Positions 15,854 through 39,858 of a stretch of DNA of 64,000 bases are shown here, piece after piece; positions within the stretch are counted from its first letter, which is position 1, and every line of letters starts with the position of its first letter. The notes below the pieces were generated by a model. The model saw only the letters and a program-made list of their open reading frames with translations. It was not told where the DNA came from and ran no database searches. The DNA is from a bacterium. GTDB lineage: Bacteria > JACRDZ01 > JAQUKH01. The DNA lies in NCBI GenBank assembly GCA_040754625.1, contig JBFMCF010000096.1, forward strand, positions 1,651 to 65,650. Direction: 5' to 3'. A program made the translations under genes and the position numbers.

Positions 15854-15883
15854 TATTTTACTATTTATGACTAAGCGGATTTA

Positions 15884-17722: not shown

Positions 17723-17802
17723 AATATTAATATTCCTGAATAATAAATTATTATATAATATTAATTTAAAATAGGCAATTGTTTAAATCGAATTATATTT
17801 TA

Positions 17803-19276: not shown

Positions 19277-19297
19277 ATATCTTGACTAAACATATAG

Positions 19298-20563: not shown

Positions 20564-21669
20564 ACAACCCGACGGACAAAATCGGTATAACTTAAAATAA
20601 TTCTCATGACTTTCTCAGATACATTATCCACGGTGTAATCGTTAACTAGTTTTAACGATCTTTCTTCTCCTCTCTTCTGGTCATTCAAAACAGTTAACGC
20701 TTCAATTATTCGTTCCCAATTATACCCGACCATCATTACCGAGGCTTCCTCCATACCTTCAGGACGTTCATGGGACTGCCTTAAGTTTAAAGCCGGAAAA
20801 TTAAGAATTGATGATTCCTCGGTAATAGTCCCGCTATCAGAAAAGACGGCTTTGGCATTTATTTGCAATTTTACATAATCAAGAAAACCAAAAGGCTTCA
20901 TTATCTCTACCAACGGATTTAAATCAACCTTATCCCCTTCCATCCTCATTTTAGTTCTTGGATGAGTAGAAAAAATAATCCTTTTGCCATACTTTTTGGC
21001 CAAATTATTAAGCAAAATAACTAATTTACTAAATTGTTCCGGACAATCAATATTCTCTTCCCTATGAGAACTAAAAACAAAATAATCTAAACGGGTTAAT
21101 TTCATCCTTTTTAAAACATCGGATGACTCAATTTGAGGAAGATAATAATTCAGCACCTCAAACATCGGGCTTCCGGTTTTAATAATTCTATCTGCAGGCA
21201 ATCCTTCCCTAAGCAAGTTTTCTCTGGAAATCGAGGAATAGGGAAGATTAATGTCACTAATATGGTCAATTATCTTTCGGTTAATCTCTTCCGGTACGCG
21301 CTGGTCAAAACAACGGTTTCCCGCTTCCATGTGGAAGATAGGTATTTTTTGCTTTTTTGCCGCAATGGCAGATAGACAACTATTAGTATCGCCCAAAACC
21401 AGCAAGGCATCGGGATTGGTTTTTCTCAATACTTCATCCGAACCGGAAATAACTAAGCTGATAGTTTCAGCAGCAGTTTTACCCGCAGCCTCGAGAAAAA
21501 AATCAGGCTTACGTATGTTTAATTCTTTAAAGAAAATTTGATTGAGTTCATAATCATAATTCTGTCCCGTGTGAATAATTATGTGCTGAGTGAATTTATC
21601 CAACACAGCCATAACTCTGGACAACCTGATAATTTCGGGTCTTGTACCGATAATTGTAGCTATTTTCAT
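20548..21669 (-). CDS. UDP-N-acetylglucosamine 2-epimerase (non-hydrolysing; FnlC/Cap5G type)
   Basis: MKIATIIGTRPEIIRLSRV...IHTGQNYDYELNQIFF...LVLGDTNS: classic 2-epimerase motifs. Confidence 0.85.
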   Translation of the reverse strand: MKIATIIGTRPEIIRLSRVMAVLDKFTQHIIIHTGQNYDYELNQIFFKELNIRKPDFFLEAAGKTAAETISLVISGSDEVLRKTNPDALLVLGDTNSCLSAIAAKKQKIPIFHMEAGNRCFDQRVPEEINRKIIDHISDINLPYSSISRENLLREGLPADRIIKTGSPMFEVLNYYLPQIESSDVLKRMKLTRLDYFVFSSHREENIDCPEQFSKLVILLNNLAKKYGKRIIFSTHPRTKMRMEGDKVDLNPLVEIMKPFGFLDYVKLQINAKAVFSDSGTITEESSILNFPALNLRQSHERPEGMEEASVMMVGYNWERIIEALTVLNDQKRGEERSLKLVNDYTVDNVSEKVMRIILSYTDFVRRVVWQEK

Positions 21670-22823
21670 TAATATCCTTTCTTTTCCATTTTGTCCAAAA
21701 TTACATTCATTGGATATGTATCCGTATTACCGGGGTCGAGAATCTGGTTGGACCAAAACAATGTAACTAAATTTCCTGAGCCGGTATTTTTTATCGAATG
21801 GGCGTATCCGGGCGGAATATCAATAACCCGCAGGTCAGAACCACTAACTTTATATTCAATTATATCAGAACAAAATATATTGCGGAAGGCGATCACTGCC
21901 TCTCCCTCAACCACAAAAAACTTTTCTGTTTTAGTATTATGATAGTGGTTTCCACGAATGACTCCGGGCAAAGTATTTGAAACAAAAATTTGGCCAAACC
22001 CGCCGGCCTTTAAAAACTCGCCTAAATATCCCCGGTTATCTGATTTTTTCTCCAACGTATATGATAAGTTGCCCGAATCAAGATATGAAAGATATGTAGC
22101 ATAAAGTTTTCTTATAAACTCATCGGCAAAATCAGGAGATAAAAGATTTGAACGGAAACTTTTAAAATCCATCAGCGTTTGAGCTAATTTTCCAAGAGTT
22201 ATCGTATAATCAGGGAAAACTTCTTTATAAAAAAACCCACTTGTATGGAATGACTCGATTTCGTTTGTAAAATCTTTTACTACATCATCAATATAAACCA
22301 ATGTTAACTTAGCATCCATATCGGAGATCGACAATGGCAGATTATGAGCAATATTATAACAGAAAGTTGCCACAACAGAATTATAATTTGGTTTACACCA
22401 TTTACCAAAAACATTTTTTAGCCGGTAAACAGTCACTTTTGCATTTGTTTTTTCAGAATACTCCTTTAATAATGTTTCTGCATCTTTTTTACTTTGTCCA
22501 TAAGGATTTGTTAAATTCGCTTGTATTGAAGAAGAGAAAATAACAGGTATTTTCCGTTTATTTTTATAGAGTAATTCACACAGCTTTCTGGTAAAATCCA
22601 CATTACCGGTTTGAAACTCGCCTTCTTCCTTAGGCCGGTTTATACCGGCTAAATGAACTACTATATCCGCATCTTTCAAACAAGCTTCAAGTTCAGAATA
22701 ATTATTCCCTATGTCGAACTGAATAACATTATATTGTAATCTCTGAAGCAAAAAAGACACCAGATTCTTTCCAATAAAACCCTTTGCCCCAGTAATTAAA
22801 ACAGTTGATTTTTCATTAACCAT
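21669..22823 (-). CDS. CapF/FnlB-like bifunctional SDR reductase with C-terminal cupin (UDP-2-acetamido-2,6-dideoxy-L-talose dehydrogenase type)
   Basis: N-terminal LITGAKGFIGKNL Rossmann domain plus a C-terminal cupin region (GVIRGNHYHNTKTEKFFVVEGEAVI). The two-domain architecture is characteristic of Cap5F/FnlB. Confidence 0.7.
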   Translation of the reverse strand: MVNEKSTVLITGAKGFIGKNLVSFLLQRLQYNVIQFDIGNNYSELEACLKDADIVVHLAGINRPKEEGEFQTGNVDFTRKLCELLYKNKRKIPVIFSSSIQANLTNPYGQSKKDAETLLKEYSEKTNAKVTVYRLKNVFGKWCKPNYNSVVATFCYNIAHNLPLSISDMDAKLTLVYIDDVVKDFTNEIESFHTSGFFYKEVFPDYTITLGKLAQTLMDFKSFRSNLLSPDFADEFIRKLYATYLSYLDSGNLSYTLEKKSDNRGYLGEFLKAGGFGQIFVSNTLPGVIRGNHYHNTKTEKFFVVEGEAVIAFRNIFCSDIIEYKVSGSDLRVIDIPPGYAHSIKNTGSGNLVTLFWSNQILDPGNTDTYPMNVILDKMEKKGY

Positions 22824-22890
22824 TTTTGTATTCTTTTTACTCCTCTGCGGTATAATCCACTTTCATTAACATTTCTATCATCTCCAGCTC

Positions 22891-23688
22891 TTACAAAATA
22901 TGTGTATTATCAGAGTTATAATTGGCACGTATAAGATTATCTTTTTCTGCCCTGTTAGGATAATTAATAAGAACTGCTTTGTATACACCTTTGAATACAA
23001 ATAAACTACCGGCAGCCGCACCTATGATCCTGTGTTTATTAATTAGCTTGCCTATATCATTAAGCGATCTTGCGCCCCCAAGAACTGTTAACGGTATATT
23101 AACCGCCTCCCGGACTTTCTCAACTAAATCAAGATCATAGCCTTTCATAAGGCCGTCATTATCTATAGAATTTATCACTATCTCGCCTGCTCCAAGCCTT
23201 TCCATTTGCAGTGCCAATTCTGACGGGCATTTTCCGGTAGCCTTATGCCCATTGTGTGTCCAAATCTCATACTTACCATCTGCAAAATGTTTTTTTACAT
23301 CTAATACAACCACCACGCTCTGATTACCAACACATTCAGCCGCCTCAGTTACAAGACCAGGGTTTTCTATTGCGGCAGAACTTATTGCTACTTTTTCTAC
23401 ACCTGATTGAATAATTCTTTGTATCTGCCCAATAGTCTTTACACCGCCTCCATAGCAAAGAGGCATTCGACATTCCGCCGCTAAATGTTCAATCATATTA
23501 TAATCGGGTTCTCTTTTTTCAAGAGTCGCACTAATATCTAATACTATAAGTTCGTCCACTTCCTTCTCGTTGAAAATCTTTACAGCATTTATAGGGTCTC
23601 CTACATACTTCGGACTTTTAAAATTGACAGTCTTAACAAGGCCTTTGTCTTTAACCAATAAGCATGGAATAATCCGTGGATATAACAT
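22891..23688 (-). CDS. HisF-like cyclase subunit of imidazole-glycerol-phosphate-synthase-type amidotransferase (WbuZ-like)
   Basis: RIIPCLLVKDKGLVKTVNF......GDPINAVKIFNEKEVDELIVLDI: (beta/alpha)8 HisF family. It sits in an LPS/O-antigen context next to a HisH-like gene. Confidence 0.75.
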   Translation of the reverse strand: MLYPRIIPCLLVKDKGLVKTVNFKSPKYVGDPINAVKIFNEKEVDELIVLDISATLEKREPDYNMIEHLAAECRMPLCYGGGVKTIGQIQRIIQSGVEKVAISSAAIENPGLVTEAAECVGNQSVVVVLDVKKHFADGKYEIWTHNGHKATGKCPSELALQMERLGAGEIVINSIDNDGLMKGYDLDLVEKVREAVNIPLTVLGGARSLNDIGKLINKHRIIGAAAGSLFVFKGVYKAVLINYPNRAEKDNLIRANYNSDNTHIL

Positions 23689-23690
23689 CT

Positions 23691-24305
23691 TTACAGCTTT
23701 CCAAAATTTTCAAGGAGCCTAATACCCCATTGATGACTTTTTTCCGGATGAAATTGAACACCAAAAACATTTCCGGAATTCACTGCACAGGCAAATTCTC
23801 CGCCATAATCAGTTACAGCAATAACATTCCCGCTTTCACGGCTTTGAAAATAATATGAATGTAAAAAATAAAAGCGCGCGTTAATATCAAGACCCTGCAG
23901 CAAACCATTCATTTTTAATGGTTTGATATTGTTCCAGCCCATGTGAGGCACACACATTGAATATCCTGAAGAAGAAGGATTGAACCTTTTTATCTCCCCA
24001 TCTATCCACCCAAGACCAGGCAGGTTTCCCTCCTCGCTGGAACGTGCAAGTATCTGCATCCCAACACATATACCCAAAACTGGTATATGACGACTAAGCA
24101 CAATCTCATCAAGGAACTGCCGCATACCTGATTTTTGAAGCATCTGCATCGCATAATCAAAAGAGCCAACGCCCGGTAATATCACCTTACTGGCATTTTC
24201 TAAATCTTCGGGTTGCTTAACAATTTTAGCCGGTATATTTAATTTTTTATAGACATTAGCAAACGCTCTCACATTTCCCAATCCGTAATCAATTATTGAT
24301 ATCAT
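23691..24305 (-). CDS. HisH-like glutamine amidotransferase subunit (WbuY-like)
   Basis: IIDYGLGNVRAFANVYKKL...ILPGVGSF...PVLGICVGMQIL...HMGWN: class-I GATase triad motifs. Confidence 0.8.
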   Translation of the reverse strand: MISIIDYGLGNVRAFANVYKKLNIPAKIVKQPEDLENASKVILPGVGSFDYAMQMLQKSGMRQFLDEIVLSRHIPVLGICVGMQILARSSEEGNLPGLGWIDGEIKRFNPSSSGYSMCVPHMGWNNIKPLKMNGLLQGLDINARFYFLHSYYFQSRESGNVIAVTDYGGEFACAVNSGNVFGVQFHPEKSHQWGIRLLENFGKL

Positions 24306-25447
24306 CGGATTATTACCTTTTGTATCCTAAACATTCGCAAAATATTTGTTGCAAAACTGATTAAAGGCATGCTGGATTTGTAATCCCGGTAAGTCTTATT
24401 CTTACCGTTCATTATCTCCCGCAGTTCAGGCACAGTCAGACCCAGCTTTGTAGCTACATACTCGAAGTCCTGGATCATTGTCTGCTCATCATATGCTTTT
24501 TGTGCAATACGTTCAAGCGCTGCTTCGCGTGTCATTTGTTTGGTTAAAATTAAACTGGAAAAATGCGCTCGGCGCTTATCATATCCAAACTTTGTTGGAA
24601 GCCAATATCCTTCATAAAATCTTGTAAAACGCGATTCGTAATGCTTATGAGCGTATTTTTGCCAGCCAAATTTGTCCATCAACTCTTGCATGGCCTCTTC
24701 TTTAATATAAGAAACATAATTTAGCAGTTTTACTACCCTGACACCTTTAATATACCGGTAGTATAACTTATATTTAAAAATATCAGCTAATGGAAATGTT
24801 TTTAAAGGGCGGTGACCAAAACGGCGGTGAATATCTCTTATCTGACGTAAATCGGAAGCATGGTAATGCCATTCAAGCGGTTCGCGAACACATTCAGTAG
24901 AATAGTTCGCGCCTGTTAATACGTATCTGAAACCGTTCTTTGCCGCAAAATTATAAAGCGCGGCAAAAAATGCATGATCCTGCGGCGTGTCAATATGAGG
25001 AACCTGCGCTTTAAAAAAAGCTAACTGCAAATCCTTCATCTCAAGCCAATCAACAACCTCCGTATGTAAGTCAAGATTGAGTCCGTCGATCAACCTTTCA
25101 ATATTATTTACGCTTTCCTGCGAGTTCCAGCCGGCGTCGACATGAAACAACAACGGTCTTAAGCCAAATCTTTTTTTTGCAAGATATGCACAATATGAAC
25201 TGTCAACACCGCCGCTTATGCCGATAAGACAATCGTGGCCGCGCCCTTTTCCATCCTTCTTGATCCTCTCAACGAGAGGAGCAAGCATCTTTTCACCATT
25301 CTCATTTGGGTGCCAATTCGGCAAAATATTTTTATGGTAATTACGGCAATAGTCGCACCAGCCCCGCTCATCAAAAGTAATATTGGGGTCGGTAGTGTCC
25401 ATTATGCAGTTTGAGCATATTTGATACTTTGTTTTACTCATATTCAC
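24302..25447 (-). CDS. N-acetyl-sugar amidotransferase (WbuX/PP-loop ATP pyrophosphatase family)
   Basis: CSNCIMDTTDPNITFDERGWCDYC zinc ribbon plus the PP-loop GISGGVDSSY. Forms a wbuXYZ-like trio with the two downstream genes. Confidence 0.75.
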   Translation of the reverse strand: MNMSKTKYQICSNCIMDTTDPNITFDERGWCDYCRNYHKNILPNWHPNENGEKMLAPLVERIKKDGKGRGHDCLIGISGGVDSSYCAYLAKKRFGLRPLLFHVDAGWNSQESVNNIERLIDGLNLDLHTEVVDWLEMKDLQLAFFKAQVPHIDTPQDHAFFAALYNFAAKNGFRYVLTGANYSTECVREPLEWHYHASDLRQIRDIHRRFGHRPLKTFPLADIFKYKLYYRYIKGVRVVKLLNYVSYIKEEAMQELMDKFGWQKYAHKHYESRFTRFYEGYWLPTKFGYDKRRAHFSSLILTKQMTREAALERIAQKAYDEQTMIQDFEYVATKLGLTVPELREIMNGKNKTYRDYKSSMPLISFATNILRMFRIQKVIIR

Positions 25448-25509
25448 AGCTCCTCATATTAAAAAAACCTGGCCAGAAAAATGGTTATTCAAAAATATTT
25501 TCAACGCAA

Positions 25510-26685
25510 CTATTTCCCCTTAAAAAGCTGGCGATTCCCCTCCAATATAGTAGGATCTAATAAGCGCTCAATAATTTTAGCCTTAACAACAGCCCGTTTC
25601 TTTAAACGTTCATTATAGCTCAATAAGGCAAAATTCTCAATTGTTTTTACAAAAGAATCCATCTGAGTTAAATCTATATCCCAGCCTAATCCATCGGCCT
25701 GTAAATTACGCCAGGAAGTTTTGTTACTAATCAGTACCGGTGTCCCTGCTGTTAAAGATTCAATAATGACATGTCCGTAATTCTCTCCGGCTGTCGGAAG
25801 TAAAAAAAGATCGTACTGGCTAAAAACATGTCCAACTTCACCGGGGTTTACACTTCCGAAATAATTTACCTTCACGTTATCGGGCATCCTATTCATTAAT
25901 TCCTGGCATTCTTTCCAATAAACCGTATCTTCTGCAGGCCCATAGATATCAAAAATCACCTTTGTTTTAACTTTACTTAAAACATTTAAAGCATAATCTA
26001 ATCTCTTTTCCCGCGCAATTCGGGATAAAAATACAACTTTTAAATTTTCAAAATCAGATGATGGTTGCAAAGTTACTTCAGGATATTTATCAGAAATAAC
26101 TTTGTTTGGCAAATCACGCGCTATGCGGATTGTATCAGGTTTCACCTTCATAATCTTAATGATATCCTTTACTTCAAATTCACTAGATGCCTGCCATATA
26201 ACCTTATTATAAAATCCGAACAACCTGGCCATCTGAATATAAATGAACTTTTTTGGATATTTCAAACCTAATGACCCCCAGGCAAACTCTCCACGCGGTG
26301 CAACAATTATATGTTTAAATTTTGCAAAACCAAACTTGCGGATTAATAACACCTTTACGGTAAGAGGATCAAAAAAGCTATTTAGGTAAACTACATCATG
26401 TGGGGTATTTTTCAGCAAATTCAATATATCTTTTACAGTGCTCGTCTGCGGTTGCAAATAAAAAACCACTGCATTGCCAACCTTATTCCATTGATTAGGC
26501 TTTATGCAGGCGTAAGGAATATCTTCCCCCAAATCCCTGTCTCGCGTAACTATACGAAAGTCGAAATCATCACATAAATAATCAACAGTGTTGGCGATTG
26601 TGCGCAAGATACCTCCTGCTTTATAGCCGGGAAGATAATTGCCAATAAAAGTAAGAATAATTGGTTTATCATTAAAACTCTTCAT
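25510..26685 (-). CDS. GT4 glycosyltransferase
   Basis: 391 aa. GT-B fold with the C-terminal retaining-GT motif region (FLLPTAGENYGHVIIESLTAGTPVLIS). Confidence 0.65.
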   Translation of the reverse strand: MKSFNDKPIILTFIGNYLPGYKAGGILRTIANTVDYLCDDFDFRIVTRDRDLGEDIPYACIKPNQWNKVGNAVVFYLQPQTSTVKDILNLLKNTPHDVVYLNSFFDPLTVKVLLIRKFGFAKFKHIIVAPRGEFAWGSLGLKYPKKFIYIQMARLFGFYNKVIWQASSEFEVKDIIKIMKVKPDTIRIARDLPNKVISDKYPEVTLQPSSDFENLKVVFLSRIAREKRLDYALNVLSKVKTKVIFDIYGPAEDTVYWKECQELMNRMPDNVKVNYFGSVNPGEVGHVFSQYDLFLLPTAGENYGHVIIESLTAGTPVLISNKTSWRNLQADGLGWDIDLTQMDSFVKTIENFALLSYNERLKKRAVVKAKIIERLLDPTILEGNRQLFKGK

Positions 26686-26747
26686 TATTTTTCATTATTC
26701 CAAAACACTCATCTTATTTCAATGAGCAAAACTATCAATACTGTTCT

Positions 26748-28211
26748 TCAAATTCTTGCCAGCTTTTCCCGCAGATAGTTAAATCCCGACCAATGTGTAA
26801 CCCTTAAGAATAAAAAATTAAGAGTTATGCCGGACCGAACTTTGACCATAAAAGTTTGCATCAAAATCCACCAAAGCGGTTTATAACCTTTATAAACCTG
26901 ATAATTAAACCATGTATATGCTTTTTGAATTTGACGTTTAGAAAAATGAGGGAAATCAATCACAGGCTGTCTCCGTTCCAGCCGATAATCAATAGGTGGT
27001 TTTAGATAACCTTCCCGAATACACATGTTATATAATTCTGTGCCCGGATATGGGAAAAAAATCCCCGAATAATGAAAATCCGGCTGGCATTGACGATTTA
27101 CTAAAACTGTTTCCATATAATCATTGTAAGCCTCGCCGGGAAGGCCTATTATATTAAACACAAAGATTTTAAGCCCAGCTTTACGCGCCATAGCAGTAAC
27201 ATCCAAAAAATCCTTGTTTGAATAGTCCCGCTTGAGTATTTCCTTGCGAACCCGTTCACTTCCTGACTCAAGACCAATATTAATTTTATAAAAATGCGCT
27301 TTTTTGAGCGCAAATAATATGTCTTCATCTTTTGATTGCGGGGAAATTCGGAAATTACAGCCATACGAAATAAAATTATCAATTGTTGCGTTAAACCTTT
27401 CAAGCTGTTTACAAAATTCAAAAAGCCAAGCTTTATTCAAAGCTATAGATTCTACCTCGAAATATATTCTTGATTGTGTCGGATATGTTGTATGAAGAAA
27501 AGCAATTTCTTTGATAATATTTTCAGGAGAACGAAATCTCACATATTTTCCAGCAGCAACTTTTTTAAGAGCGTGGTTGCAACAATATGTACAACCGTGG
27601 GGACAGCCCCGCCCCAGCAATACAGCTAATTCAGCCCCCGACTGTTCTTTCATCCATGGTATCCATATTGCCCTATCCGGAAATGGCAAACTATCAATAT
27701 CTTGAAAAAAAGGACGGGTAGAATTCCTTTCAATATTTCCGTCCGAAGATTTTATCCATAGATTTTGAATCCCGTGGGGGACAGTACCCGCTTCTATCTG
27801 GCGGCATAATTCTAACATTGAATATTCTCCTTCCCCTATGCAAACAGCGTCAAAATGGCCGTTTATTACCTCGGAAGGATTCAAAGTAGCATGTACTCCA
27901 CCGATAATAAGATATTTATCAGGCCATTGACTTTTTATAAAACTTGCTATTTTTTCAATGAAAGGATACTGACTCGTTACGGCAGTAAAACAAATAACAT
28001 GAGGAAAAAACTTCTCTACAAACTTGTTTAACAGCTTTATGTTCTTTTCCCATGGATTACTGCTTCCTAATACTACAAGTTGAGTTTCGTAACCATTAAT
28101 TTTTAATACAGAAGAAATGTAAGAAATTCCAAACGATATGTCTGACCAGGACTGCAAAGGCCTTGAGATTGATTGAGCATCCTCTAACGAATAAATAAAC
28201 GCAATTTTCAT
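26748..28211 (-). CDS. Cobalamin(B12)-binding-domain radical SAM enzyme
   Basis: N-terminal B12-binding-like Rossmann region, then GRGCPHGCTYCCN (CxxxCxxC) and a radical-SAM TIM-barrel region; 487 aa. Confidence 0.7.
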   Translation of the reverse strand: MKIAFIYSLEDAQSISRPLQSWSDISFGISYISSVLKINGYETQLVVLGSSNPWEKNIKLLNKFVEKFFPHVICFTAVTSQYPFIEKIASFIKSQWPDKYLIIGGVHATLNPSEVINGHFDAVCIGEGEYSMLELCRQIEAGTVPHGIQNLWIKSSDGNIERNSTRPFFQDIDSLPFPDRAIWIPWMKEQSGAELAVLLGRGCPHGCTYCCNHALKKVAAGKYVRFRSPENIIKEIAFLHTTYPTQSRIYFEVESIALNKAWLFEFCKQLERFNATIDNFISYGCNFRISPQSKDEDILFALKKAHFYKINIGLESGSERVRKEILKRDYSNKDFLDVTAMARKAGLKIFVFNIIGLPGEAYNDYMETVLVNRQCQPDFHYSGIFFPYPGTELYNMCIREGYLKPPIDYRLERRQPVIDFPHFSKRQIQKAYTWFNYQVYKGYKPLWWILMQTFMVKVRSGITLNFLFLRVTHWSGFNYLREKLARI

Positions 28212-28270
28212 TGATAATTCCTTAAATTTACAATCAATTAATATAGTTTTGAGAACAGAAAATATTTTCT

Positions 28271-29050
28271 CTATTTCGCAATTGTTCCTGTATTCCTGTT
28301 TAAATAAACCACATTATCATGCCTGTCCTGTAAATAGAAACCGTGAATATCAATTAACTCTTTTAACATATCATCCACAGATACCGGAACTCCGGCATAC
28401 GTTGTATTATGTAATTCAAAAAAAATATGCTGGCAGTCACGCAACGCTTCTCTGTCTTGACGAATAATATAGACTTCTTCACCTTCTATATCCGCTATGA
28501 GCACAAAATCATTAATATGATAAGCGGATTTCAATTCAAATAAAGTAACCGCTTTAACCATAATAGAATTATGTTGCGGATTTCCACAAGTTAATCTTCC
28601 TGTCGTTGATAAATGGCCTGGTGTAAAAAAGACATTATTATTACTTTTTTTATTATAATTAATGGCCATATTGAGGCATTCTACATTATGATATAGACGG
28701 TTAAGATTTAAGTTTACAGGTATATGCCTACTCAATGCAGGGTGCGCTTCCACACAAATTAAACAGGCATTTTTATAGAGACGTTTTCTGATGAGTGAAG
28801 AAACAACTCCAATAGAACTGCCTAACTCAATAACATCGAACGACTCAGGCAAATACTTTTGAATAAAACGAATCTCTGCACTTTCATATATTTTCCAAAA
28901 AAGTTCAGCCTTAGTTGCTGGAGAAATCTCAGGAATTGAAGTATTAAATACCATACCCCTGAAAGGAATTTTATCATTATAGAAATAAGACAAAATTTTT
29001 CCTATCAGGGAGATAGTTAACATCCTGGCAATAAATATTTTTATTTTCAT
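28271..29050 (-). CDS. FkbM-family SAM-dependent methyltransferase
   Basis: VIELGSSIGVVSSLI...CVEAHPA matches the FkbM methyltransferase domain. Confidence 0.55.
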   Translation of the reverse strand: MKIKIFIARMLTISLIGKILSYFYNDKIPFRGMVFNTSIPEISPATKAELFWKIYESAEIRFIQKYLPESFDVIELGSSIGVVSSLIRKRLYKNACLICVEAHPALSRHIPVNLNLNRLYHNVECLNMAINYNKKSNNNVFFTPGHLSTTGRLTCGNPQHNSIMVKAVTLFELKSAYHINDFVLIADIEGEEVYIIRQDREALRDCQHIFFELHNTTYAGVPVSVDDMLKELIDIHGFYLQDRHDNVVYLNRNTGTIAK

Positions 29051-29067
29051 TATTTACATAATTTAGT

Positions 29068-30135
29068 TTAACTGCTTCTAATTTCCGATATAATTTGATG
29101 AAATTTTTCAGCCCAATGGGTATGCACGTAAAATGAACTTAACCGTTTGCTCTCGTTATAAACCTCATTTAATTTCCAACCAGGTAAGGAAGCAGCTTCT
29201 TTTAGTTTTTCTGATAACTCGTTAACCGATTTTGCTTTAAAAATAAATCCGTTCTTTTTATTTAAAAATTCATAGCGGTTTCCTACCCGATCGCTAAGAA
29301 TCAAACCACATCCTGTCAGAGCAGCCTCCGAGACAACCAATGGCCAGTGATCTTCTATACTGGGCAGCACTAAAAATCTCGACCGCTTTAAAGCATCGGC
29401 TATTTGAAGAGACTGCATAAATGGATGAACTATTACACCCGGACAACTTTCCAGAAGGTTTTTATATTCACCAGCACCATACACGAGGATTTTCCAATCA
29501 GGAAAATCCTGATGGAATATCTTGAATGCTTTTGCCAGGGTAGAAACCCCTTTTCGGGCAATAAACTGCCCGATAAAAATAAACTGCTTAGGCCTCTGAG
29601 TTAGAATAGGCCCAGGAGTAAAGCAATTAGAATCTGACCCATAAAGGCCCGTATATATCTGTGAAGAAGGCATGCCAAAAAAACGCATAAGGTGAACCGC
29701 TGATTCGCCGGGCACCCAAACTGCTGAAAACCATTTTTTATAAAAAAAACGAAATTTAACTGCTCCCATCCATTGCCGTATGTTGTTTTTCCAGCAATTA
29801 TCTATAAGACATATAACTTTTCCACCATTATCTCTGACTTCTCTCCCTAACTTATTAAATGAAGGAATAAACCAGCCTGCTTGAAAAAAAATATCCGGAA
29901 TAGATAAATCAATGTCATGCCATGAGTTCACATTTGATTTATCTATCCAGTAAATTTTTTGGCCGAGAAGTTCCTCCGAATCCTTGGTAGACATTTGCGG
30001 CATTGTTCCGATAACTATTACAGGATGCCCCAATCTCTTAATACCTTCCCGGATAAGACGGGCACCATAAGCAGGAATACCCGACCATGAAATAGCAATA
30101 TTAATTTTAGTTCCAGAAGTTTTTACAACATTCAC
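29068..30135 (-). CDS. GT4 glycosyltransferase
   Basis: FIFIGQFIARKGVSTLAKAF...ILVYGAGEY...LVLPSIEDHWPLVVSEAALTGCGLILSD: GT-B/GT4 C-terminal domain. Confidence 0.65.
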   Translation of the reverse strand: MNVVKTSGTKINIAISWSGIPAYGARLIREGIKRLGHPVIVIGTMPQMSTKDSEELLGQKIYWIDKSNVNSWHDIDLSIPDIFFQAGWFIPSFNKLGREVRDNGGKVICLIDNCWKNNIRQWMGAVKFRFFYKKWFSAVWVPGESAVHLMRFFGMPSSQIYTGLYGSDSNCFTPGPILTQRPKQFIFIGQFIARKGVSTLAKAFKIFHQDFPDWKILVYGAGEYKNLLESCPGVIVHPFMQSLQIADALKRSRFLVLPSIEDHWPLVVSEAALTGCGLILSDRVGNRYEFLNKKNGFIFKAKSVNELSEKLKEAASLPGWKLNEVYNESKRLSSFYVHTHWAEKFHQIISEIRSS

Positions 30136-31280
30136 AATATGTCATCCTGCAGCCAATTAATTAATCTATCAGCCTGGTAACTCCAAGTCTTTTTTTTCAA
30201 CAAAAAGTCCTTTATCTTCATAGAATTTTGGCCTATTCTATTATCAGGCCAATGCAACACATTTTCAATCGTTTTTGCTAAACAATCTTCGGTTTCTTCT
30301 TTCAATACTTCAAGCACATCACGATACTCAGGACTAAGTCCAGATGTCCATGTGCTAATAACCGGTTTCCCGTAACTCAAGTATTCTAAAATCTTTGAAG
30401 GGAAATTCATATTATTGCCGGGAACACGTGAAGGCCTCGGATTTACCAGAACAGATGCCTGCCTGCACATTTTCTGAAGCTGTGACTCAGGAACAAGGCC
30501 GAAAAAACGTATGCGGGAATCTTGCTTGAGAGCGGCCTTCAAATCTGAACTGCTTCCATGTCCACAAATCCAGAGCTCAATGTTAGTATCGCGAATCTGT
30601 TCAAAAGCCTTTAGTAAAAAACTGACCCCTCCCCAAACACTCATCATCCCTGTATATAGAACAATTTTTTTATTCTCCGATCCCTTGTTAGACTGTGTTT
30701 CCGGGTTAAATCGCAAGAGGCTGATTCCCCCATCTAAATGCAATTTTTTCGGAAAAGGACAATTTTGAAAAGCGTGATAGGACAAAAATACATGGCCTTT
30801 CGCCATATCAGCACCAGAAGGATACCGGGCCCAATTAGGACCAGGATCATATTGATCAGCGCATATATCTATCCATGGAACATGGTAATTTTTCTGCGCA
30901 TAAAGTCCAGCAGTTATACTCTCAGGGTTCGGGTTATAGGAAAATACTGCCAAAGGGTTTCCTCGCTTCTCACAGATTTCACAAATAGCCTTAATATATA
31001 CCCGGCGTAAACTGGCAACTCTCAATAATGGAATGTTCCAATAATGAACAAAGCGGCTATCAAAACCCGGATCAAGGTCACCAAAACTGCCTGGATTATA
31101 TTTCCCTCTCGGCCATATGGGTTCGGGTAAATGCGATATCAGAACAATGGAAAATCCCTGCTCACTTAAAGCCTTGATCAATCCTGCCTGCCAGCGGTTA
31201 GCGGCAGGACTGGTAGCAGGGTGTTTTACTAAAGAATCTTCACTAAAAATTCCACCCAACCATAACAACCACTTTGCCAA
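30132..31280 (-). CDS. GT4 glycosyltransferase
   Basis: IVLYTGMMSVWGGVSFLLKAFEQI...ELWICGHG...VLVNPRPS...NFPSKILEYLSYGKPVIST. Confidence 0.65.
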   Translation of the reverse strand: MAKWLLWLGGIFSEDSLVKHPATSPAANRWQAGLIKALSEQGFSIVLISHLPEPIWPRGKYNPGSFGDLDPGFDSRFVHYWNIPLLRVASLRRVYIKAICEICEKRGNPLAVFSYNPNPESITAGLYAQKNYHVPWIDICADQYDPGPNWARYPSGADMAKGHVFLSYHAFQNCPFPKKLHLDGGISLLRFNPETQSNKGSENKKIVLYTGMMSVWGGVSFLLKAFEQIRDTNIELWICGHGSSSDLKAALKQDSRIRFFGLVPESQLQKMCRQASVLVNPRPSRVPGNNMNFPSKILEYLSYGKPVISTWTSGLSPEYRDVLEVLKEETEDCLAKTIENVLHWPDNRIGQNSMKIKDFLLKKKTWSYQADRLINWLQDDIL

Positions 31281-31292
31281 TTAGACCTCCAT

Positions 31293-32762
31293 TTATCGTT
31301 TTAGTCCAGGTACTAAAGATTGACTTCGTTGAAAAGGCCGCAACTGCCTATTTTCAGATAAAGGGCTATCTTGCAGAAACAAACAATGACACAGCCCGGC
31401 CAAACTCCAAATCCAAAATCCCACAGTTTGGTCTGCCGGAAAATCACCCGTTGTCATTCCTACAATACCAACACCCAAAATACCCGCAGCCAAACTCTTA
31501 AGAACCGGATCGGTAGATTTCGTCAATACCAAAAGATTATTCTTCAAAGCAAGGAATAAAATAACAAGCATGATTGTCCCAGCGAATAATCCATCAAGCC
31601 GTAAAATTTCAAGAGCGGTGTTATGAGCGCCCACTACCCACTCATCGGGAAGACCAGGAGTTTCCAAAAGCAACGGCTTACCGGAAGGAATAACGAAATA
31701 AGGCCCTGAAATAATCTGTTTTAATGCTGCATGCCAGAAAGGTAACCGGTCAGACAGTAATTTGGCTTTAAACCTTTCCGCAAAGGTACCATAATAAGAA
31801 CCATGTGAAAGTGAAGGTTTATAGTCAGGATGATATCCCAGTAAACTGATACCAGCAGAAAAGAACAGAATCCCTAAAATTGCTATACCTCCAATAAATT
31901 TCGCAATACGATTACGAAAAATTGAGTTTGGTCTTTTTATTATAGAACCATAAGAAGTGTTGATAAGCGGCTTCTGTTTTTTTTCACCTAAATAAGATAA
32001 AAGGACAGATAGCGAAATAATTCCTATAGTAGTTATAGAACCTTTTATCGCATATTCTACTAATAAAAAAAACACCAATATCCCTAACAGACGATATTTA
32101 AGCGGCCGATTGTAAATCAAATAGATCGAAAAAGCCCCGCTCAAACCCATGAAAAGGAAACCGTGATGTGACCAATAAACTCCCAAGCACATCAATGAAA
32201 ACATAATAATAACAAATGGCAGAAGAATGGGAATTAAAATGTCATTTTTCTCCCTTGGCCAATGTTTGGCCAGAATATAGCCATAGAAATAACTTCCTGT
32301 AATCATTAAAAAACGTAGGCCGCGCGTCCAGTTAGGATTTCTCGTCTGGTAGGCTAAATAAAACCCGATCAAAACAGGCAAAAAAGCTGTTAACCAAAGT
32401 GATAAAAGAATTTTTGGAAATTGTGATTTAAAGGTTCTAGGTCGAACAAGTTTCTCCAGAAAAACCCGTAAACTAATAAAACCACAAGCCACTGTTTCGA
32501 CATTTATAGGTAATCCTGCCACAATAACATATTCTCTAAACTCATCAGGTATTGACCCATCATTGATATTATAAAAATAATAACGCGTTAAATACAGTAA
32601 AAACAGCCCCAAAATACCATCCGGCCTACCACGCATTATAAGCCAAAAAGATAGGCAAATGCCCAGAAAGGTTGACAGTGTAACACTAATAAAAGACAAC
32701 AAAAAACAAGAGAAACAAACAACAGTAATAGGAATAAACAAACTTGTTTTTAAATAATTCAT
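31293..32762 (-). CDS. Polytopic membrane protein, O-antigen ligase/polymerase-like (third Wzy_C-like candidate)
   Basis: 489 aa, more than 10 TM, with a large loop containing WHAALKQIISGPYFVIPSGKP. Not a paralog of the 8086/14582 pair. Confidence 0.4.
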   Translation of the reverse strand: MNYLKTSLFIPITVVCFSCFLLSFISVTLSTFLGICLSFWLIMRGRPDGILGLFLLYLTRYYFYNINDGSIPDEFREYVIVAGLPINVETVACGFISLRVFLEKLVRPRTFKSQFPKILLSLWLTAFLPVLIGFYLAYQTRNPNWTRGLRFLMITGSYFYGYILAKHWPREKNDILIPILLPFVIIMFSLMCLGVYWSHHGFLFMGLSGAFSIYLIYNRPLKYRLLGILVFFLLVEYAIKGSITTIGIISLSVLLSYLGEKKQKPLINTSYGSIIKRPNSIFRNRIAKFIGGIAILGILFFSAGISLLGYHPDYKPSLSHGSYYGTFAERFKAKLLSDRLPFWHAALKQIISGPYFVIPSGKPLLLETPGLPDEWVVGAHNTALEILRLDGLFAGTIMLVILFLALKNNLLVLTKSTDPVLKSLAAGILGVGIVGMTTGDFPADQTVGFWIWSLAGLCHCLFLQDSPLSENRQLRPFQRSQSLVPGLKR

Positions 32763-32780
32763 TACAAAATGTTAATCCTT

Positions 32781-34013
32781 TCAGCCAAGAATTGAATCAT
32801 AAATTCCGGTTATTTTGGCCATTTGCCGCTTAATATTAAAATCTATCCGCGCCTTATTAAAAGCATTTTCACCCAGTTCTCTCATTTTATCCGAATCTAA
32901 TAAAAGTTCCTCCAATGCCCCAGCTAAAGCATCCGGAGAATTGGGTTTAACTAAAAGACCAGTACGCCCATGTTCAATCAGCTCATTAATCCCACCCAAA
33001 TCCGACCCGATAGAAGGTTTCCCCATGGCTGCGGCCTCAATAACTGGCCGGGCAAAATGAGGCTGAGTAGCAGGGAAAACGATTATATGGCTTGCGGCAA
33101 TAAAAGGCGTAATATCTTCCTGAAAGGGCAAAAATTTCAAGTGGGATTGTATGCCCAACTCATGGACTTGTTTCTCCACTTTCTGCGCTAACACACCCGA
33201 TCCAAACAACGATAAAATTTTTCTTACCATCAACGAAACTAATCTCCCGGACGACAAAAGATTCGAACCGGCCAAAATACAGACAAAATTCGGAACTGAA
33301 TCGCGAACCAAACTTAGCGCGTTTAGAAGCACCTGTATCCCATTGATTTCTGAAACCCCTCCCAAAAATAATATTATTTTAGTATTTTCAGGTATCCCCA
33401 TTTTTATCTTTATGCCGTTAGGAGAAACATCCGGATTAAATTTTTTTAGATCAATAAAGTTGGCTATAACACATCCCCGCGATTTGCCTATCCAGTTTTC
33501 CCAATCATAGTGAGAAATAAATATCACCTCGTTACCGTATTTTTTAAGCAAAAACCTCATAAAATTTGTTCTCAGGCCAAAATATCCTTTCACCGAAGCT
33601 TCACGGACATGCCAAACAAAAGGAATACGACCTTTTGCCAAAGCCATGGCTGAAGGAACCAAAACAACAGAATTAAGATGAACTAAATCAGGTTTTACTT
33701 TTGCAACTAAATCCAAAGTAAGACGCATAGATTGTTTCCAATGGATAAAACTTTGTACCAAAGAAAGGCATCCTAAAGGAGAACTCAAACAGGCCCAAGA
33801 AGCAGTGGTATGCTCAAAAGTATAAATTCCAGGAGCAACTACTACTGTAAACCCTGCCTTTTCATAAAAATTAATTACTTCCATACAAGGACGGATAAGA
33901 GCAACGACGGGCTCAAATCGCGAAAGGTCGAGACCCTGTAATGTATAGAGCAGACTCATACACGAACCGCCCAAGCCGCCCGCATGTTGAATATAAAGAA
34001 TCTTTCTTTTCAT
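32781..34013 (-). CDS. GT4 glycosyltransferase
   Basis: ILYIQHAGGLGGSCMSLL...IILFLGGVSEINGIQ...VFPATQPHFARPVIEAAAMGKPSIGSDLGG. Confidence 0.65.
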   Translation of the reverse strand: MKRKILYIQHAGGLGGSCMSLLYTLQGLDLSRFEPVVALIRPCMEVINFYEKAGFTVVVAPGIYTFEHTTASWACLSSPLGCLSLVQSFIHWKQSMRLTLDLVAKVKPDLVHLNSVVLVPSAMALAKGRIPFVWHVREASVKGYFGLRTNFMRFLLKKYGNEVIFISHYDWENWIGKSRGCVIANFIDLKKFNPDVSPNGIKIKMGIPENTKIILFLGGVSEINGIQVLLNALSLVRDSVPNFVCILAGSNLLSSGRLVSLMVRKILSLFGSGVLAQKVEKQVHELGIQSHLKFLPFQEDITPFIAASHIIVFPATQPHFARPVIEAAAMGKPSIGSDLGGINELIEHGRTGLLVKPNSPDALAGALEELLLDSDKMRELGENAFNKARIDFNIKRQMAKITGIYDSILG

Positions 34014-34014
34014 T

Positions 34015-35886
34015 TTAATTCAATTTTATCCGTTTTTTCTCAAGCCATGAAAGCAAAATTCCCCATGCCCAAAGCGATCTTGGAGGTCTGTCTTTACGAA
34101 GCATGCTGTATAGGCTTCGAAGATAAACCGGACGAAATATTTTTTTTGCAGATTCGCTATTTAAAAGTTCTTCAAAACATGGTTTCAAATCGCCTTTCAT
34201 CCAGCTGATAAAAGGTAATTCAAATCCCATCTTAGGACGATCTCGTAATTTTTCTGGTAAAAATTCCGCTACAGCATTAATAAAAATTTTTTTTGTTTCT
34301 ATATCACTTAACTTGTGTGCCGCAGGCAGCGCATAAGCAAATTCAACCAGAGGATGATCCAGAAGCATTGGTCGAACCTCGAGACCGTGCGCCATACTCA
34401 TAACATCCCCATCCCGAAGCAAAGTGCTTAGTAAATAACCTTTCATCTCAGCATAACTGGTTTGTTGAACTTCATCCGCATCAGCCATTAACAATTTCTC
34501 TTGACCTTCTACAAGACGTTTACGAAAAGATTTGCACCATTCAGGTTGTACAGCATCTTCAAACTCAAAATTCTCCAGAATGCGCCGCAGCATTGTCAAA
34601 CGTTCGACTGAGCTTGCTAATTTGAAAAGCAAACGCAATGTAATAAAGTTCGGTCTCAGTTTATGTGTTTTTTCCAGAAGATTATATATAATCGGATTAG
34701 GATTGGATATCAATTTTTTATCTTCTGCAAGCCAGCGAAAATGTGTATACCCTGCAAAAAGCTCGTCTCCTCCAAGGCCGGATACGCAAACTTTAACATA
34801 ATACCGGGATGCATGAGAAATTATCCATGTGTTGGTCCCGTCGATACTTGGCTGATCAATAGCTGTTACTATTTTCTCAAATATTTTCGATGCATCATTT
34901 GAAGTTATTACTATTTCCTCATGTTCGCTTTTTAAATAATCAGCCGCTATACGGGCATATTTCCGTTCGTCAATGGCACTATGCGTATTCTCAAAACCTA
35001 CTGAAAAGGTCTTTATTTTTCTCCCGCTTACAGCACTCATTAATCCAACAACTGCAGTCGAATCGATTCCGCCGCTCAAAAACGCTCCTACCGGCACATC
35101 TGACACTAAATTATAGCGAGCGGCATCCTGAAGAAATATCTTCAATCTCTCGGATGCTTCATGGAAACAAACATTACGTAGTTCCTTTCTAAGTTCAGCA
35201 GTTTCTTCATGAAGGTCCCAATATTTAACAAACCGTTTCTTATTTTTACAAACCTCCATCCAATGTCCGGCTGGAATTGCCTTAATTCCTTTAATTATTG
35301 TCTTCGGCTGGAATACCGCTCCCACAGCTAAATAATCCAGCAAAGCATCCGGATCAATCTCCCGGTTTATCCATCCATTTTCCAAAAGGCCGCGCAATTC
35401 AGACGCAAAAAAAAGTTGGGAAGCATTTTCATAATATAGTAACGGTTTGATTCCCAATCTGTCCCGGACAAGTATCAGCTCAGGACAACCTGGAGAAGGA
35501 TATCTATCAACCAATGCAAAAGCAAACATGCCCCGCAGACGTTTAAAAGAATCCCTACCCCACTTTAAATATGCCGCAAGAATAACCTCTGTATCCGAGT
35601 TGGAATAGAACCGGCACCCAAGGGCTTCCAACTCAGACCTTAATTCTTTGAAATTATATATCTCTCCGTTAAAAGCAATCCATAATCGCCCGTTAGCGTA
35701 AGACATAGGCTGATGGCCTTCGGGTGATAAATCAATAATTGAGAGCCTGCAATGACCAAGTGTAACAGGAATCTCCTGATTGTTCCATATTCCACTTCCA
35801 TCCGGTCCGCGATGGGATTGGACATTTATCATCCTTCCAACTGTTGCTTCATCTGAAACTCCATATATACCGGCAATTCCACACAC
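34015..35886 (-). CDS. Asparagine-synthase-family glutamine amidotransferase (AsnB/WbpS-like), copy 1; probable GTG start
   Basis: The catalytic N-terminus CGIAGIY follows a GTG at 35886. This GTG is preceded by GAGGTG at a 7-nt spacing; the ORF-track start at 35901 is a TTG. PP-loop SGGIDST; 623 aa from the GTG start. Confidence 0.75.
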   Translation of the reverse strand: MCGIAGIYGVSDEATVGRMINVQSHRGPDGSGIWNNQEIPVTLGHCRLSIIDLSPEGHQPMSYANGRLWIAFNGEIYNFKELRSELEALGCRFYSNSDTEVILAAYLKWGRDSFKRLRGMFAFALVDRYPSPGCPELILVRDRLGIKPLLYYENASQLFFASELRGLLENGWINREIDPDALLDYLAVGAVFQPKTIIKGIKAIPAGHWMEVCKNKKRFVKYWDLHEETAELRKELRNVCFHEASERLKIFLQDAARYNLVSDVPVGAFLSGGIDSTAVVGLMSAVSGRKIKTFSVGFENTHSAIDERKYARIAADYLKSEHEEIVITSNDASKIFEKIVTAIDQPSIDGTNTWIISHASRYYVKVCVSGLGGDELFAGYTHFRWLAEDKKLISNPNPIIYNLLEKTHKLRPNFITLRLLFKLASSVERLTMLRRILENFEFEDAVQPEWCKSFRKRLVEGQEKLLMADADEVQQTSYAEMKGYLLSTLLRDGDVMSMAHGLEVRPMLLDHPLVEFAYALPAAHKLSDIETKKIFINAVAEFLPEKLRDRPKMGFELPFISWMKGDLKPCFEELLNSESAKKIFRPVYLRSLYSMLRKDRPPRSLWAWGILLSWLEKKRIKLN

Positions 35887-35947
35887 AATTATACACCTCA
35901 AATAATATTAAACGAACCTATTGCCACACAAAAAGATATGAGCGAAT

Positions 35948-36619
35948 TCACTGTTTACATGCAACAACGTGAACAGAGCTATCATTGAGTCGATACAATT
36001 TGCTCGGTGTTTCATTTTTATCAAGGATATTAAATCCAACATCCCGTAACTTTTTTGTCATCGAATATGAATCGTACATCAAGCGGTGTTGCAACCCAAA
36101 ACCTCCGAAAAATTCTAGCAATCGATACTTGAGAGAACCTCTTGATTCATTGCTAAGTAAAGTTGCCCTAATAAAATCGTCAGCGGCTCGAGATTCTGCA
36201 TCCCTATTTTTAAGTAGATACCGCTCTGCCTGCTCTTTGAGATCTGGGACGATGACGTGCAGCGTAGCCCCTGTCTTCATCACGCGATAAAAATCTCTAA
36301 TAATTCTCTCCATCTCAATAGGAAATACATGCTCCAAAAAATGCGAACATAGAATGTGGTCTACAGAATTATCAGGAAAAAATAAAGTAGTTCTGCAATC
36401 ATGCTTAATTAACAACACCTTTTTCATTGCTTCACAATACTGTTCGATAATCTCAGAATATTTTCGCGGCACAATTCTCTTGATTAACTTAAAATATTTT
36501 AATAAATACAGAAATATAGTGTTATCAAGATTGACAAACTCCTCCAGTACATAGGTTGATGATGCAATATTTAACCAGATTTCACCCTTCAAGTTTCTAT
36601 AATAGTCAACATTTCTCAC
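35948..36619 (-). CDS. Class I SAM-dependent methyltransferase
   Basis: HILCSHFLEHVFPIEMERIIRDFYRVMKTGATLHVIVPD is typical of Methyltransf_11-like domains. Confidence 0.5.
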   Translation of the reverse strand: MRNVDYYRNLKGEIWLNIASSTYVLEEFVNLDNTIFLYLLKYFKLIKRIVPRKYSEIIEQYCEAMKKVLLIKHDCRTTLFFPDNSVDHILCSHFLEHVFPIEMERIIRDFYRVMKTGATLHVIVPDLKEQAERYLLKNRDAESRAADDFIRATLLSNESRGSLKYRLLEFFGGFGLQHRLMYDSYSMTKKLRDVGFNILDKNETPSKLYRLNDSSVHVVACKQ

Positions 36620-36648
36620 TTCTTATTTACCTCCTATCACCTACATTT

Positions 36649-39790: not shown

Positions 39791-39858
39791 TATAACCTCT
39801 ATTTTCCTCATTTAGAAATAAAAACCATCCACAATGCTTATTTATCCATTTATTTATT

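Follow-up and report, generated by a model that had tools for sequence, protein, structure and literature searches.

The radical SAM protein (rSAM) encoded in the glycan locus described here belongs to a large family without characterised members, whose genes occur mainly in the cell-surface glycan loci of bacteria and archaea that are uncultured. The best overall explanation has an even chance of being right: a genuine class-B radical SAM enzyme in accessory glycan tailoring, independent of the adjacent FkbM methyltransferase, linked to the glycosyltransferase GT4c and likely C-methylating. C-methylation of a glycan sugar as the specific reaction is our best guess, held at slightly less than even confidence. 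No description of a B12/cobalamin radical SAM enzyme in a cell-surface glycan locus was found in the literature.

The radical SAM gene and its family

The window, that is, the whole stretch of 64,000 nucleotides analysed, carries a Wza/Wzx/Wzy-type glycan locus of ~50 kb. The rSAM and FkbM genes lie inside this locus, both on the minus strand, and are flanked by GT4 genes (Table 1). The initial annotation had located them there; its coordinates were exact, and ORFs and HMM matches confirmed the arrangement. Long ORFs, strong HMM matches and many homologues identify real genes rather than chance ORFs. The NCBI annotation of a MAG contig of 93 kb includes identical rSAM and FkbM proteins (P0001; P0121). 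The genes share a strand, are spaced by 59 and 62 nt and have an AAGGA ribosome-binding site, all of which fits one operon. Promoter and terminator scans around the rSAM and FkbM genes gave counts similar to those in shuffled sequence and are uninformative about transcription units.

Table 1. Positions of rSAM, FkbM and surrounding genes in the window.
Feature	Position	Strand	Evidence or context
WbuX / HisH / WbuZ(HisF2) acetamidino-sugar module, downstream of GT4c	22891..25447	-	TIGR03573 313 bits, TIGR01855 229 bits, NF038364 383 bits
GT4c glycosyltransferase, directly downstream of rSAM	25510..26685	-	PF00534 59.5 bits
Class-B (cobalamin-type) radical SAM enzyme (rSAM), 487 aa	26748..28211	-	PF02310, PF04055, CxxxCxxC
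FkbM-family SAM-dependent methyltransferase, 259 aa	28271..29050	-	PF05050, TIGR01444
GT4b glycosyltransferase, conserved core	29068..30135	-	PF00534 74.7 bits
GT4a glycosyltransferase, conserved core	30132..31280	-	PF13692 64.8 bits
Polytopic membrane protein, ~9 hydrophobic segments	31293..32762	-	Hydrophobicity scan
GT4 glycosyltransferase, conserved core	32781..34013	-	PF00534 109.8 bits
AsnB-type glutamine amidotransferase	34015..35901	-	PF00733 253 bits
Glyphos_transf gene	36649..37806		Same conserved block as TagD-like gene
TagD-like gene	37803..38219		Same conserved block as Glyphos_transf gene

The glycan-assembly setting proposed at first was borne out, and the locus contains further methyltransferases. 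All four flanking GT4 genes belong to the GT4 family, with PF00534 scores above the cutoff (59.5, 74.7, 53.3 and 109.8 bits). GT4b is 61–70% identical in the loci L083/84, L087, L088, L089 and L090, and its homologue lies directly downstream of rSAM in L087 and L088. GT4a is 60–70% identical in syntenic loci, and the third GT4 of the conserved core 48–72% in L087, L088, L089 and L090. The polytopic membrane protein had no significant Pfam or NCBIfam match and is 46–65% identical in syntenic loci; we infer that it is the Wzy-like polymerase of the sub-locus. The locus has two AsnB-type genes. The product of the one in Table 1, 63–65% identical in L087 and L089, would amidate a sugar carboxylate.

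The B12-binding model PF02310 matches residues 27–134 of rSAM with 53.0 bits (cutoff 32.1), and the Radical_SAM model PF04055 matches residues 199–369 with 75.5 bits (gathering cutoff 29.5). The CxxxCxxC cluster motif reads C203-PHG-C207-TY-C210, and all 94 relatives keep its three cysteines. This motif, the PF04055 score and the barrel fold place rSAM in the radical SAM superfamily. Class-B assignment was judged by a PF02310 score above the gathering score and by the cobalamin-contact motifs, scored as small-x-S/T after beta3, GG on beta4 and GE on alpha5 (PMC9204698); rSAM has both. The motifs are C74-F-T76, G104-G105 and G126-E127-G128-E129, and they are kept in 89–94 of the 94 relatives. 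C74-F-T76 pairs with A70-L-S72 of TokK in a local alignment that is weak (E 0.036) but in register with beta3 of the structural model. A TokK-like S80-x-Y82-x-F84 was considered as lower-face cobalamin motif and dropped, since this alignment and the model's beta3 point to C74-x-T76, four residues earlier.

The fold provided further support. The AF2 model (pLDDT 92) matches MgmA, TsrM, CysS, TokK and OxsB. MgmA/QCMT (PDB 9CCB), TsrM, CysS and TokK are structurally solved cobalamin-dependent methylases with 14–22% identity to rSAM and act on peptide, tryptophan or carrier-linked substrates. A C-terminal helical domain (residues ~400–487) is specific to the rSAM family in comparison to these four. 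The B12-type Rossmann domain claimed by the initial annotation is thus upheld by HMM, motifs and fold. It looks genuine, and cobalamin binding is predicted. A membrane anchor, which would suggest a lipid-linked substrate, was not found in rSAM; no segment reaches the hydrophobicity threshold.

Relatives of rSAM are widespread. The search gave 436 matches in species-representative genomes of many bacterial and archaeal phyla, almost all of them MAGs. At least 48 of the 80 best rSAM-relative loci are glycan loci. Some loci have several copies, and the 18 extra paralogous copies inside glycan loci resemble the behaviour of tailoring enzymes. The commonest immediate neighbours are GT4 (17/116) and GT2 (9/116) glycosyltransferases; deacetylases, aminotransferases and Wzy_C proteins come next. 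An Actinomycetota branch, 44–47% identical, is located beside thiolase and KAS-like genes, and one homologue stands alone. AsnB and FnlBC genes were considered as general partners and rejected, since outside the nearest loci they do not recur. A tblastn search of plasmids with rSAM detected distant relatives only (24–27% identity), in Solidesulfovibrio, in Lawsonia and as HpnJ of Burkholderia-group bacteria. The Solidesulfovibrio plasmid copy, surrounded by transposases, is uninformative.

Candidate reactions

rSAM probably modifies a sugar, with methylation as the likeliest reaction. It would be a soluble accessory tailoring enzyme of the Wza/Wzx/Wzy-type locus, with the cobalamin-type Rossmann domain followed by the [4Fe-4S]/SAM barrel. 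Reductive cleavage of SAM would yield a 5'-deoxyadenosyl radical, which may abstract hydrogen from an unactivated sugar carbon. The sugar attacked may belong to the undecaprenyl-diphosphate-linked repeat unit or be the one handled by GT4c. Methylcobalamin would donate a methyl group to the substrate radical, and a second SAM would regenerate methylcobalamin. Analogy with MoeK5, GenK and GenD1 predicts a sugar with a C-methyl branch as the product.

Characterised cobalamin-dependent radical SAM enzymes are mostly methylases, and those acting on sugars are GenK, GenD1 and MoeK5. MoeK5 of the moenomycin pathway and GenK and GenD1/GntE of the gentamicin pathway are sugar C-methylases with the class and architecture of rSAM. 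They share with it a sugar-tailoring setting among glycosyltransferases. The substrate of MoeK5 is a lipid-linked uronic acid, which is also amidated by AsnB-type amidotransferases. The three enzymes belong to actinomycete antibiotic pathways, whereas rSAM comes from an uncultured bacterium and from a cell-surface glycan locus of the Wzx/Wzy type.

A cobalamin-type enzyme whose radical chemistry alters a glycan sugar without methylating it is an unlikely alternative, and the most serious one. The reaction could be HpnJ-like, contracting the ring of a (deacetylated) hexosamine to give a carbocycle; it could be AprD4-like, with deoxygenation by dehydration of a diol; or it could oxidise or epimerise the sugar. 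The top matches of rSAM to curated families, all below threshold, are indeed the non-methylases HpnJ and BchE, with methylases close behind. The initial annotation had named grouping with non-methylating B12-rSAM families as a refutation, and on this point the matches are ambiguous. HpnJ, the hopanoid cyclitol-ether enzyme and the best curated match for the rSAM family as a whole, is of the same class and acts on a glycosylated lipid; its proposed reaction is a ring contraction rather than a methylation. A published sequence similarity network groups it with the methylases Fom3 and MoeK5 (PMC9204698; PMC12931638). AprD4 (PDB 6FD2), a radical SAM sugar 1,2-diol dehydratase, matches the fold of the rSAM model as well as the methylases do. 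AprD4 does not bind cobalamin, and a Rossmann-like domain alone is no proof of cobalamin (PMC12931638).

Several observations argue against a non-methylating reaction. Every score falls well short of its family cutoff, and rSAM reached no NCBIfam cutoff. The HpnJ model (TIGR03471) aligns over nearly the full length (residues 69–452) with 124.2 bits, compared to a cutoff of 577.6; rSAM is 24–27% identical to annotated true HpnJ, and no hpn genes or other hopanoid context were found within the window. BchE (TIGR02026) scores 115.6 bits (cutoff 481) and the AprD4 family NF033070 55.1 bits (cutoff 500), which places rSAM outside both families. The AprD4 model aligns only with the barrel (residues 201–404). 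In contrast, the models of the genuine cobalamin families BchE, PhpK, HpnR, KedN5 and MgmA align with the N-terminal domain, and the cobalamin motifs, useless to AprD4, are strictly conserved in the rSAM family. No deacetylase was found within the window, and the YdjC gene of L087/88 is located 6 kb off in an N-acyl exchange module of ACP, KAS III and acyltransferase. Methylases have no sequence signature that sets them apart from other class-B enzymes; the sub-threshold matches mix both kinds.

FkbM, GT4c and the substrate

The FkbM methyltransferase of the initial annotation is real. It scores 24.8 bits with PF05050 (cutoff 22.7) and 47.0 bits with TIGR01444 (cutoff 37.7) and has a visible glycine-rich SAM motif, VIELGSSIG. 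FkbM-family methyltransferases are known from glycan loci, for example RfbT of V. cholerae and rhizobial NoeI. The window FkbM shares with them the domain and the glycan locus and differs by an N-terminal hydrophobic segment (residues 5–23) and by having only 34 homologues found. The enzyme is probably membrane-anchored, and the gene probably serves O-methylating decoration. The annotation had regarded methylated sugars as unusual for O-antigens or capsules. This holds for C-methyl sugars; O-methyl sugars are not unusual there.

A functional pair of rSAM and FkbM for a C- and O-methylated sugar, proposed at first after the model of antibiotic sugar tailoring, has little probability. The genes do adjoin on the same strand with the 59-nt gap, each of the four near-relative loci examined has an FkbM-family gene somewhere (L083/84 and L088) or a fragment of one (L087), and such genes lie within 6 kb of the rSAM family in 10 of the 80 wider loci. 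Yet direct adjacency is limited to 4 of these 80 loci, tblastn with the window FkbM found no match in any of the 80, and co-occurrence and adjacency across related loci did not reveal a conserved pair. L089, colinear with the window at 65–80% identity, keeps FkbM (70% identity, same position) without any rSAM. Four loci (L083/84, L087 and L088) have rSAM without FkbM beside it; an O-acyltransferase or unknown ORFs occupy the slot. In L083/84 and L088, FkbM is of a different, RfbT-like type that matches the RfbT model and lies 4–5 kb from rSAM. L090 keeps the FkbM of the window, and 3.6 kb from it lies a B12-rSAM of another family (24% identity). Judged by this distribution, FkbM is an accessory tailoring gene that appears independent of rSAM, with no mechanistic coupling predicted.

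GT4c is the likely partner of rSAM. Homologues with 44% identity are located directly downstream of rSAM in L033 and L038. In L089, an unrelated GT4 stands in place of GT4c, which is replaced together with rSAM. The two genes likely form a cassette.

A lipid or a nucleotide-activated small alcohol as substrate, in place of a repeat-unit sugar, is similarly improbable. An example would be a CDP-glycerol or glycerophosphate substituent, methylated as Fom3 methylates cytidylyl-hydroxyethylphosphonate; the TagD-like and Glyphos_transf genes of one conserved block (64% identity in L087), the co-clustering of Fom3, MoeK5 and HpnJ (PMC9204698), the Actinomycetota branch and the solitary homologue would fit, but Glyphos_transf homologues had no tblastn match in the 80 wider loci, GT4 and GT2 dominate as neighbours, and the lipid-context branch has only the low identity given above and a context that never overlaps the glycan context.

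Possible consequences for cell-envelope glycans

From the window alone, rSAM remains an uncharacterised tailoring enzyme of known class in an otherwise ordinary large polysaccharide locus. A wider reading is tentative and somewhat under an even chance: the first cobalamin-dependent radical SAM family dedicated to cell-envelope polysaccharides. It would introduce a C-methyl branch or another radical rearrangement, for example carbocycle formation as by HpnJ, on a lipid-linked sugar of the repeat unit, together with a dedicated GT4, and would have spread by gene transfer among Planctomycetota, Nitrospirota, Omnitrophota, CPR bacteria and DPANN/Asgard archaea.

The function of rSAM is directly testable with natural locus variants that have the rSAM-GT4 cassette, as in the window, or are without it, as L089. 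If the enzyme does use cobalamin-dependent radical chemistry on surface glycans, enzymologists would gain a large sugar-directed class-B family to mine, and many uncultured phyla, including CPR bacteria and DPANN archaea, would commonly have envelope sugars that are C-branched or otherwise rearranged by radicals. CPR bacteria and DPANN archaea are for the most part not known to make B12. The structure of surface glycans would then be tied to corrinoid availability.

A cobalamin-type radical SAM protein

The initial annotation had placed a cobalamin-dependent radical SAM enzyme beside an FkbM methyltransferase at 26748..29050. Both ORFs were confirmed on the minus strand with exactly these limits, and identical proteins are annotated on a 93-kb NCBI contig described as 'MAG: bacterium'. 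The first protein (rSAM) belongs to the radical SAM superfamily. Residues 199-369 match PF04055 (75.5 bits, Pfam gathering threshold 29.5) and include the cluster motif C203-PHG-C207-TY-C210. Residues 27-134 match the B12-binding domain PF02310 (53.0 bits, threshold 32.1). NCBIfam models of the true cobalamin families BchE, PhpK, HpnR, KedN5 and MgmA/MJ_0865 align from residues ~25-75 onwards; the aligned stretch with the model of AprD4, which is cobalamin-free (PMC12931638), is limited to residues 201-404. Cobalamin contacts in solved class B enzymes are a small-x-Ser/Thr motif after beta3, GG on beta4 and GE on alpha5 (PMC9204698). In rSAM, a weak local alignment (E 0.036) places C74-F-T76 on A70-L-S72 of TokK, in a register that agrees with beta3 of the structural model (residues 72-76). 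G104-G105 and G126-E-G-E129 are also present, and the motif positions are kept in 89 to 94 of 94 relatives. A hydrophobicity scan found no transmembrane segment. The B12 domain, on whose genuineness the initial annotation depended, looks genuine at the HMM, motif and fold levels. By every testable criterion of sequence and fold, rSAM is of the cobalamin-type class B, and cobalamin binding is predicted.

No curated family claimed rSAM at the NCBIfam cutoffs. Scores were 124 bits for HpnJ (cutoff 577.6), 116 for BchE (481), 102 for TIGR04013 (251), 90 for ApyD (750) and 78 for PhpK (600). Across the 78 close relatives tested the ranking was similar, and HpnJ came first (E 2e-40). True HpnJ proteins share only 24-27% identity with rSAM; a published similarity network grouped HpnJ with the methylases Fom3 and MoeK5 (PMC9204698). 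Judged by these scores, similarity to HpnJ and BchE is far too low for a shared function, and on sequence grounds rSAM is not HpnJ, BchE, AprD4 or another curated family. Its grouping with non-methylating families, which would have refuted the initial annotation, is therefore ambiguous: neither of the two nearest named families methylates, but both are too dissimilar and methylases follow close behind.

Genomic partners of the family

More than 100 rSAM homologues with 55-82% identity, nearly all metagenomic, are present in the protein database. Scanning species-representative genomes gave 436 relatives, of which the best 80 loci were surveyed (44-70% identity). All 80 are MAG-derived, from Planctomycetota, Nitrospirota, Omnitrophota, Chloroflexota, Bacteroidota, Desulfobacterota, CPR groups, Actinomycetota, DPANN and Asgard archaea. 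ORF clustering detected glycan-assembly genes in at least 48 of them. Eighteen additional paralogues raise the family to 98 members, with a maximum of four per locus; L042, L020, L024, L026, L078 and other glycan loci carry two to four paralogues within 13 kb. Pfam families among the 116 immediate neighbours were GT4 (17), GT2 (9), polysaccharide deacetylase (6), DegT aminotransferase (5), class-I methyltransferase (about 5), Radical SAM (4), Wzy_C (4), FkbM (3) and GT9 (3).

The family is not confined to glycan loci. The 70% identical homologue P0030 (ENA ERZ1426853) is solitary, between genes for UvrA-like and solute-binding proteins. An Actinomycetota branch (44-47% identity) comprises 11 MAG loci (L050, L051, L058, L062, L063, L065, L067, L068, L071, L074, L076) in which rSAM is followed by genes for a conserved ~113-aa protein, a protein resembling KAS III/ChsH2(DUF35) and a thiolase. 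Glycan genes are absent from all 11, so the function may differ at this identity. The neighbours suggest a lipid- or acyl-directed paralogue.

The FkbM assignment passed both cutoffs (TIGR01444, 47 bits against 37.7; PF05050, 24.8 against 22.7), but its pairing with rSAM did not hold. The window FkbM has just 34 detectable homologues, and tblastn found no match to it in the 80 rSAM loci. An iterated FkbM profile located family members within 6 kb of rSAM in 10 of the 80, adjoining it in four. The nearest syntenic loci (L083/84, L087, L088; rSAM 69-71% identical) share a core of Glyphos_transf, AsnB, GT4, membrane protein, GT4a, rSAM and GT4b at 48-71% identity. Directly upstream of rSAM, they have an Acyl_transf_3 O-acyltransferase or two uncharacterised ORFs; the FkbM genes of these loci are RfbT-like and placed several kb downstream. 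Conversely, the metagenomic locus L089, colinear with the window and 65-80% identical (AsnB 65%, GT4 72%, membrane protein 65%, GT4a 70%, GT4b 70%, FkbM 70%, WbuX 80%), lacks rSAM. In L090, with a 57% identical FkbM, a B12-rSAM of a different family (24% identity) is 3.6 kb away. Each gene thus occurs without the other in equivalent loci, and the pairing is incidental. FkbM has an N-terminal hydrophobic segment. It is probably an O-methyltransferase that acts on a sugar at the membrane without involvement of rSAM.

The link to GT4c is better supported. What sets the window apart from L089 is the two-gene unit rSAM-GT4c (25510..28211); between FkbM and WbuX, L089 has a single GT4 unrelated to GT4c. 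GT4c homologues (44% identity over ~350 residues) are directly downstream of rSAM in L033 (Nitrospirota) and L038 (Scalindua), whose rSAMs are 47-49% identical to that of the window. The stop of rSAM and the start of GT4b overlap in L087. In these arrangements, rSAM behaves like a tailoring gene travelling together with a glycosyltransferase. The window and L089 represent natural locus variants with and without the rSAM-GT4c cassette.

Proposed reaction

C-methylation of sugars at an unactivated carbon is the chemistry of MoeK5, GenK and GenD1. These are named among the class B enzymes (PMC9204698; PMC12931638). By analogy, C-methylation of an unactivated carbon is tentatively proposed as the most likely outcome for rSAM. 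The enzyme would combine cobalamin with SAM-derived 5'-deoxyadenosyl radical chemistry, and its target would be either a lipid-linked repeat-unit sugar or the one handled by GT4c. A less likely, non-methylating class B reaction on a sugar, with ring contraction as in HpnJ or dehydration as in AprD4, is favoured by the ranking of family matches and the recurrent deacetylase neighbours. Against it are the conserved cobalamin motifs and a window without deacetylase. A non-sugar substrate, for example CDP-glycerol/glycerophosphate or a lipid, is a further, unlikely alternative. The coupled C- plus O-methylation by rSAM and FkbM of the initial annotation is contradicted by L089 and other loci.

The surrounding glycan locus

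The window has a GC content of ~37%, and all of its large ORFs are on the minus strand. The region from ~60.6 kb down to ~4.5 kb (4549..60589) forms a single, very large cell-surface glycan locus that is probably composite, with multiple assembly genes, including three Wzy-like/polytopic proteins and two or three Wzx-like flippases. L087 retains the TagD-like and glycerophosphotransferase genes along with its GT4/rSAM core, hence the glycan probably carries glycerophosphate.

Features of the glycan locus, from its head downwards
Feature	Position	Remark
Wza-like exporter	58979..	locus head
KpsF-like SIS/CBS protein		after Wza-like exporter
NusG-family regulator	55583..	locus head
Wzx-like flippase	53920..	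after NusG-family regulator
ORF	52522..53631	no Pfam or NCBIfam match
NDP-sugar pathway		nucleotidyltransferase, 4,6-dehydratase, NUDIX, epimerases, RmlC-like enzyme, split transketolase, GHMP kinase
SDR	51752..52504	adjoins second radical SAM
Second radical SAM	50706..	non-B12, 334 aa
Class-I methyltransferase-like	50076..50648	short; adjoins second radical SAM
ORF	48692..49873	no Pfam or NCBIfam match
ORF	39992..40945	no Pfam or NCBIfam match
AsnB-type amidotransferases (two)		block before GT4 block
TagD-like glycerol-3-phosphate cytidylyltransferase	within 36649..38219	138 aa, HxGH motif
CDP-glycerol glycerophosphotransferase	within 36649..38219	before GT4 block
Class-I methyltransferase-like	35948..	
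GT4	32781..34013	
Wzy-like/polytopic	31293..	
GT4a	30132..31280	
GT4b	29068..30135	
FkbM	28271..29050	259 aa
rSAM	26748..28211	487 aa
GT4c	25510..26685	
WbuX/HisH/HisF2 acetamidino module		then WbcJ(FnlB)-like reductase, FnlC-like 2-epimerase
Bac_transf, PglF-like dehydratase, ManC/Gmd/Fcl		last part; initiating transferase (Bac_transf)
Wzy-like/polytopic	14582..	
gmd to GDP-fucose synthase	10260..13071	ORF6N between
ORF6N-domain gene	11311..11865	
Wzz	9403..	short Wzz-domain; last part, with two Wzy_C proteins
Wzy-like/polytopic	8086..	
Second flippase	6625..	Wzx-like
ORF	within 4549..6608	no Pfam match
Possible flippase	2294..	Wzx-like

The ORFs without a Pfam match encode 277-409 aa. The Fcl product (354 aa) gave a two-stretch NCBIfam match just under the cutoff (441 bits against 500), suggesting an insertion of ~40 residues. 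The second radical SAM protein (PF04055, 53 bits) had viperin and MoaA as top sub-threshold NCBIfam matches, and homologues occur in five of the 80 loci of the B12-rSAM family. Its position beside an SDR recalls the AprD4/AprD3 sugar-deoxygenation pair.

Full-text literature searches found no paper on an enzyme of this type from a cell-surface glycan locus. A distant analogue from a cultured organism is the 26% identical B12-rSAM on a Lawsonia intracellularis plasmid (L086, NZ_CP107057.1), whose GT2/GalE/SIS/HAD locus also encodes six class-I methyltransferases and a further rSAM. This is a cultured-pathogen example of rSAM and methyltransferases in a glycan locus. The rSAM family is large and of uncharacterised chemistry, with a class B architecture unaltered from known enzymes. 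Locus variants with and without rSAM provide a direct experimental handle on its function.
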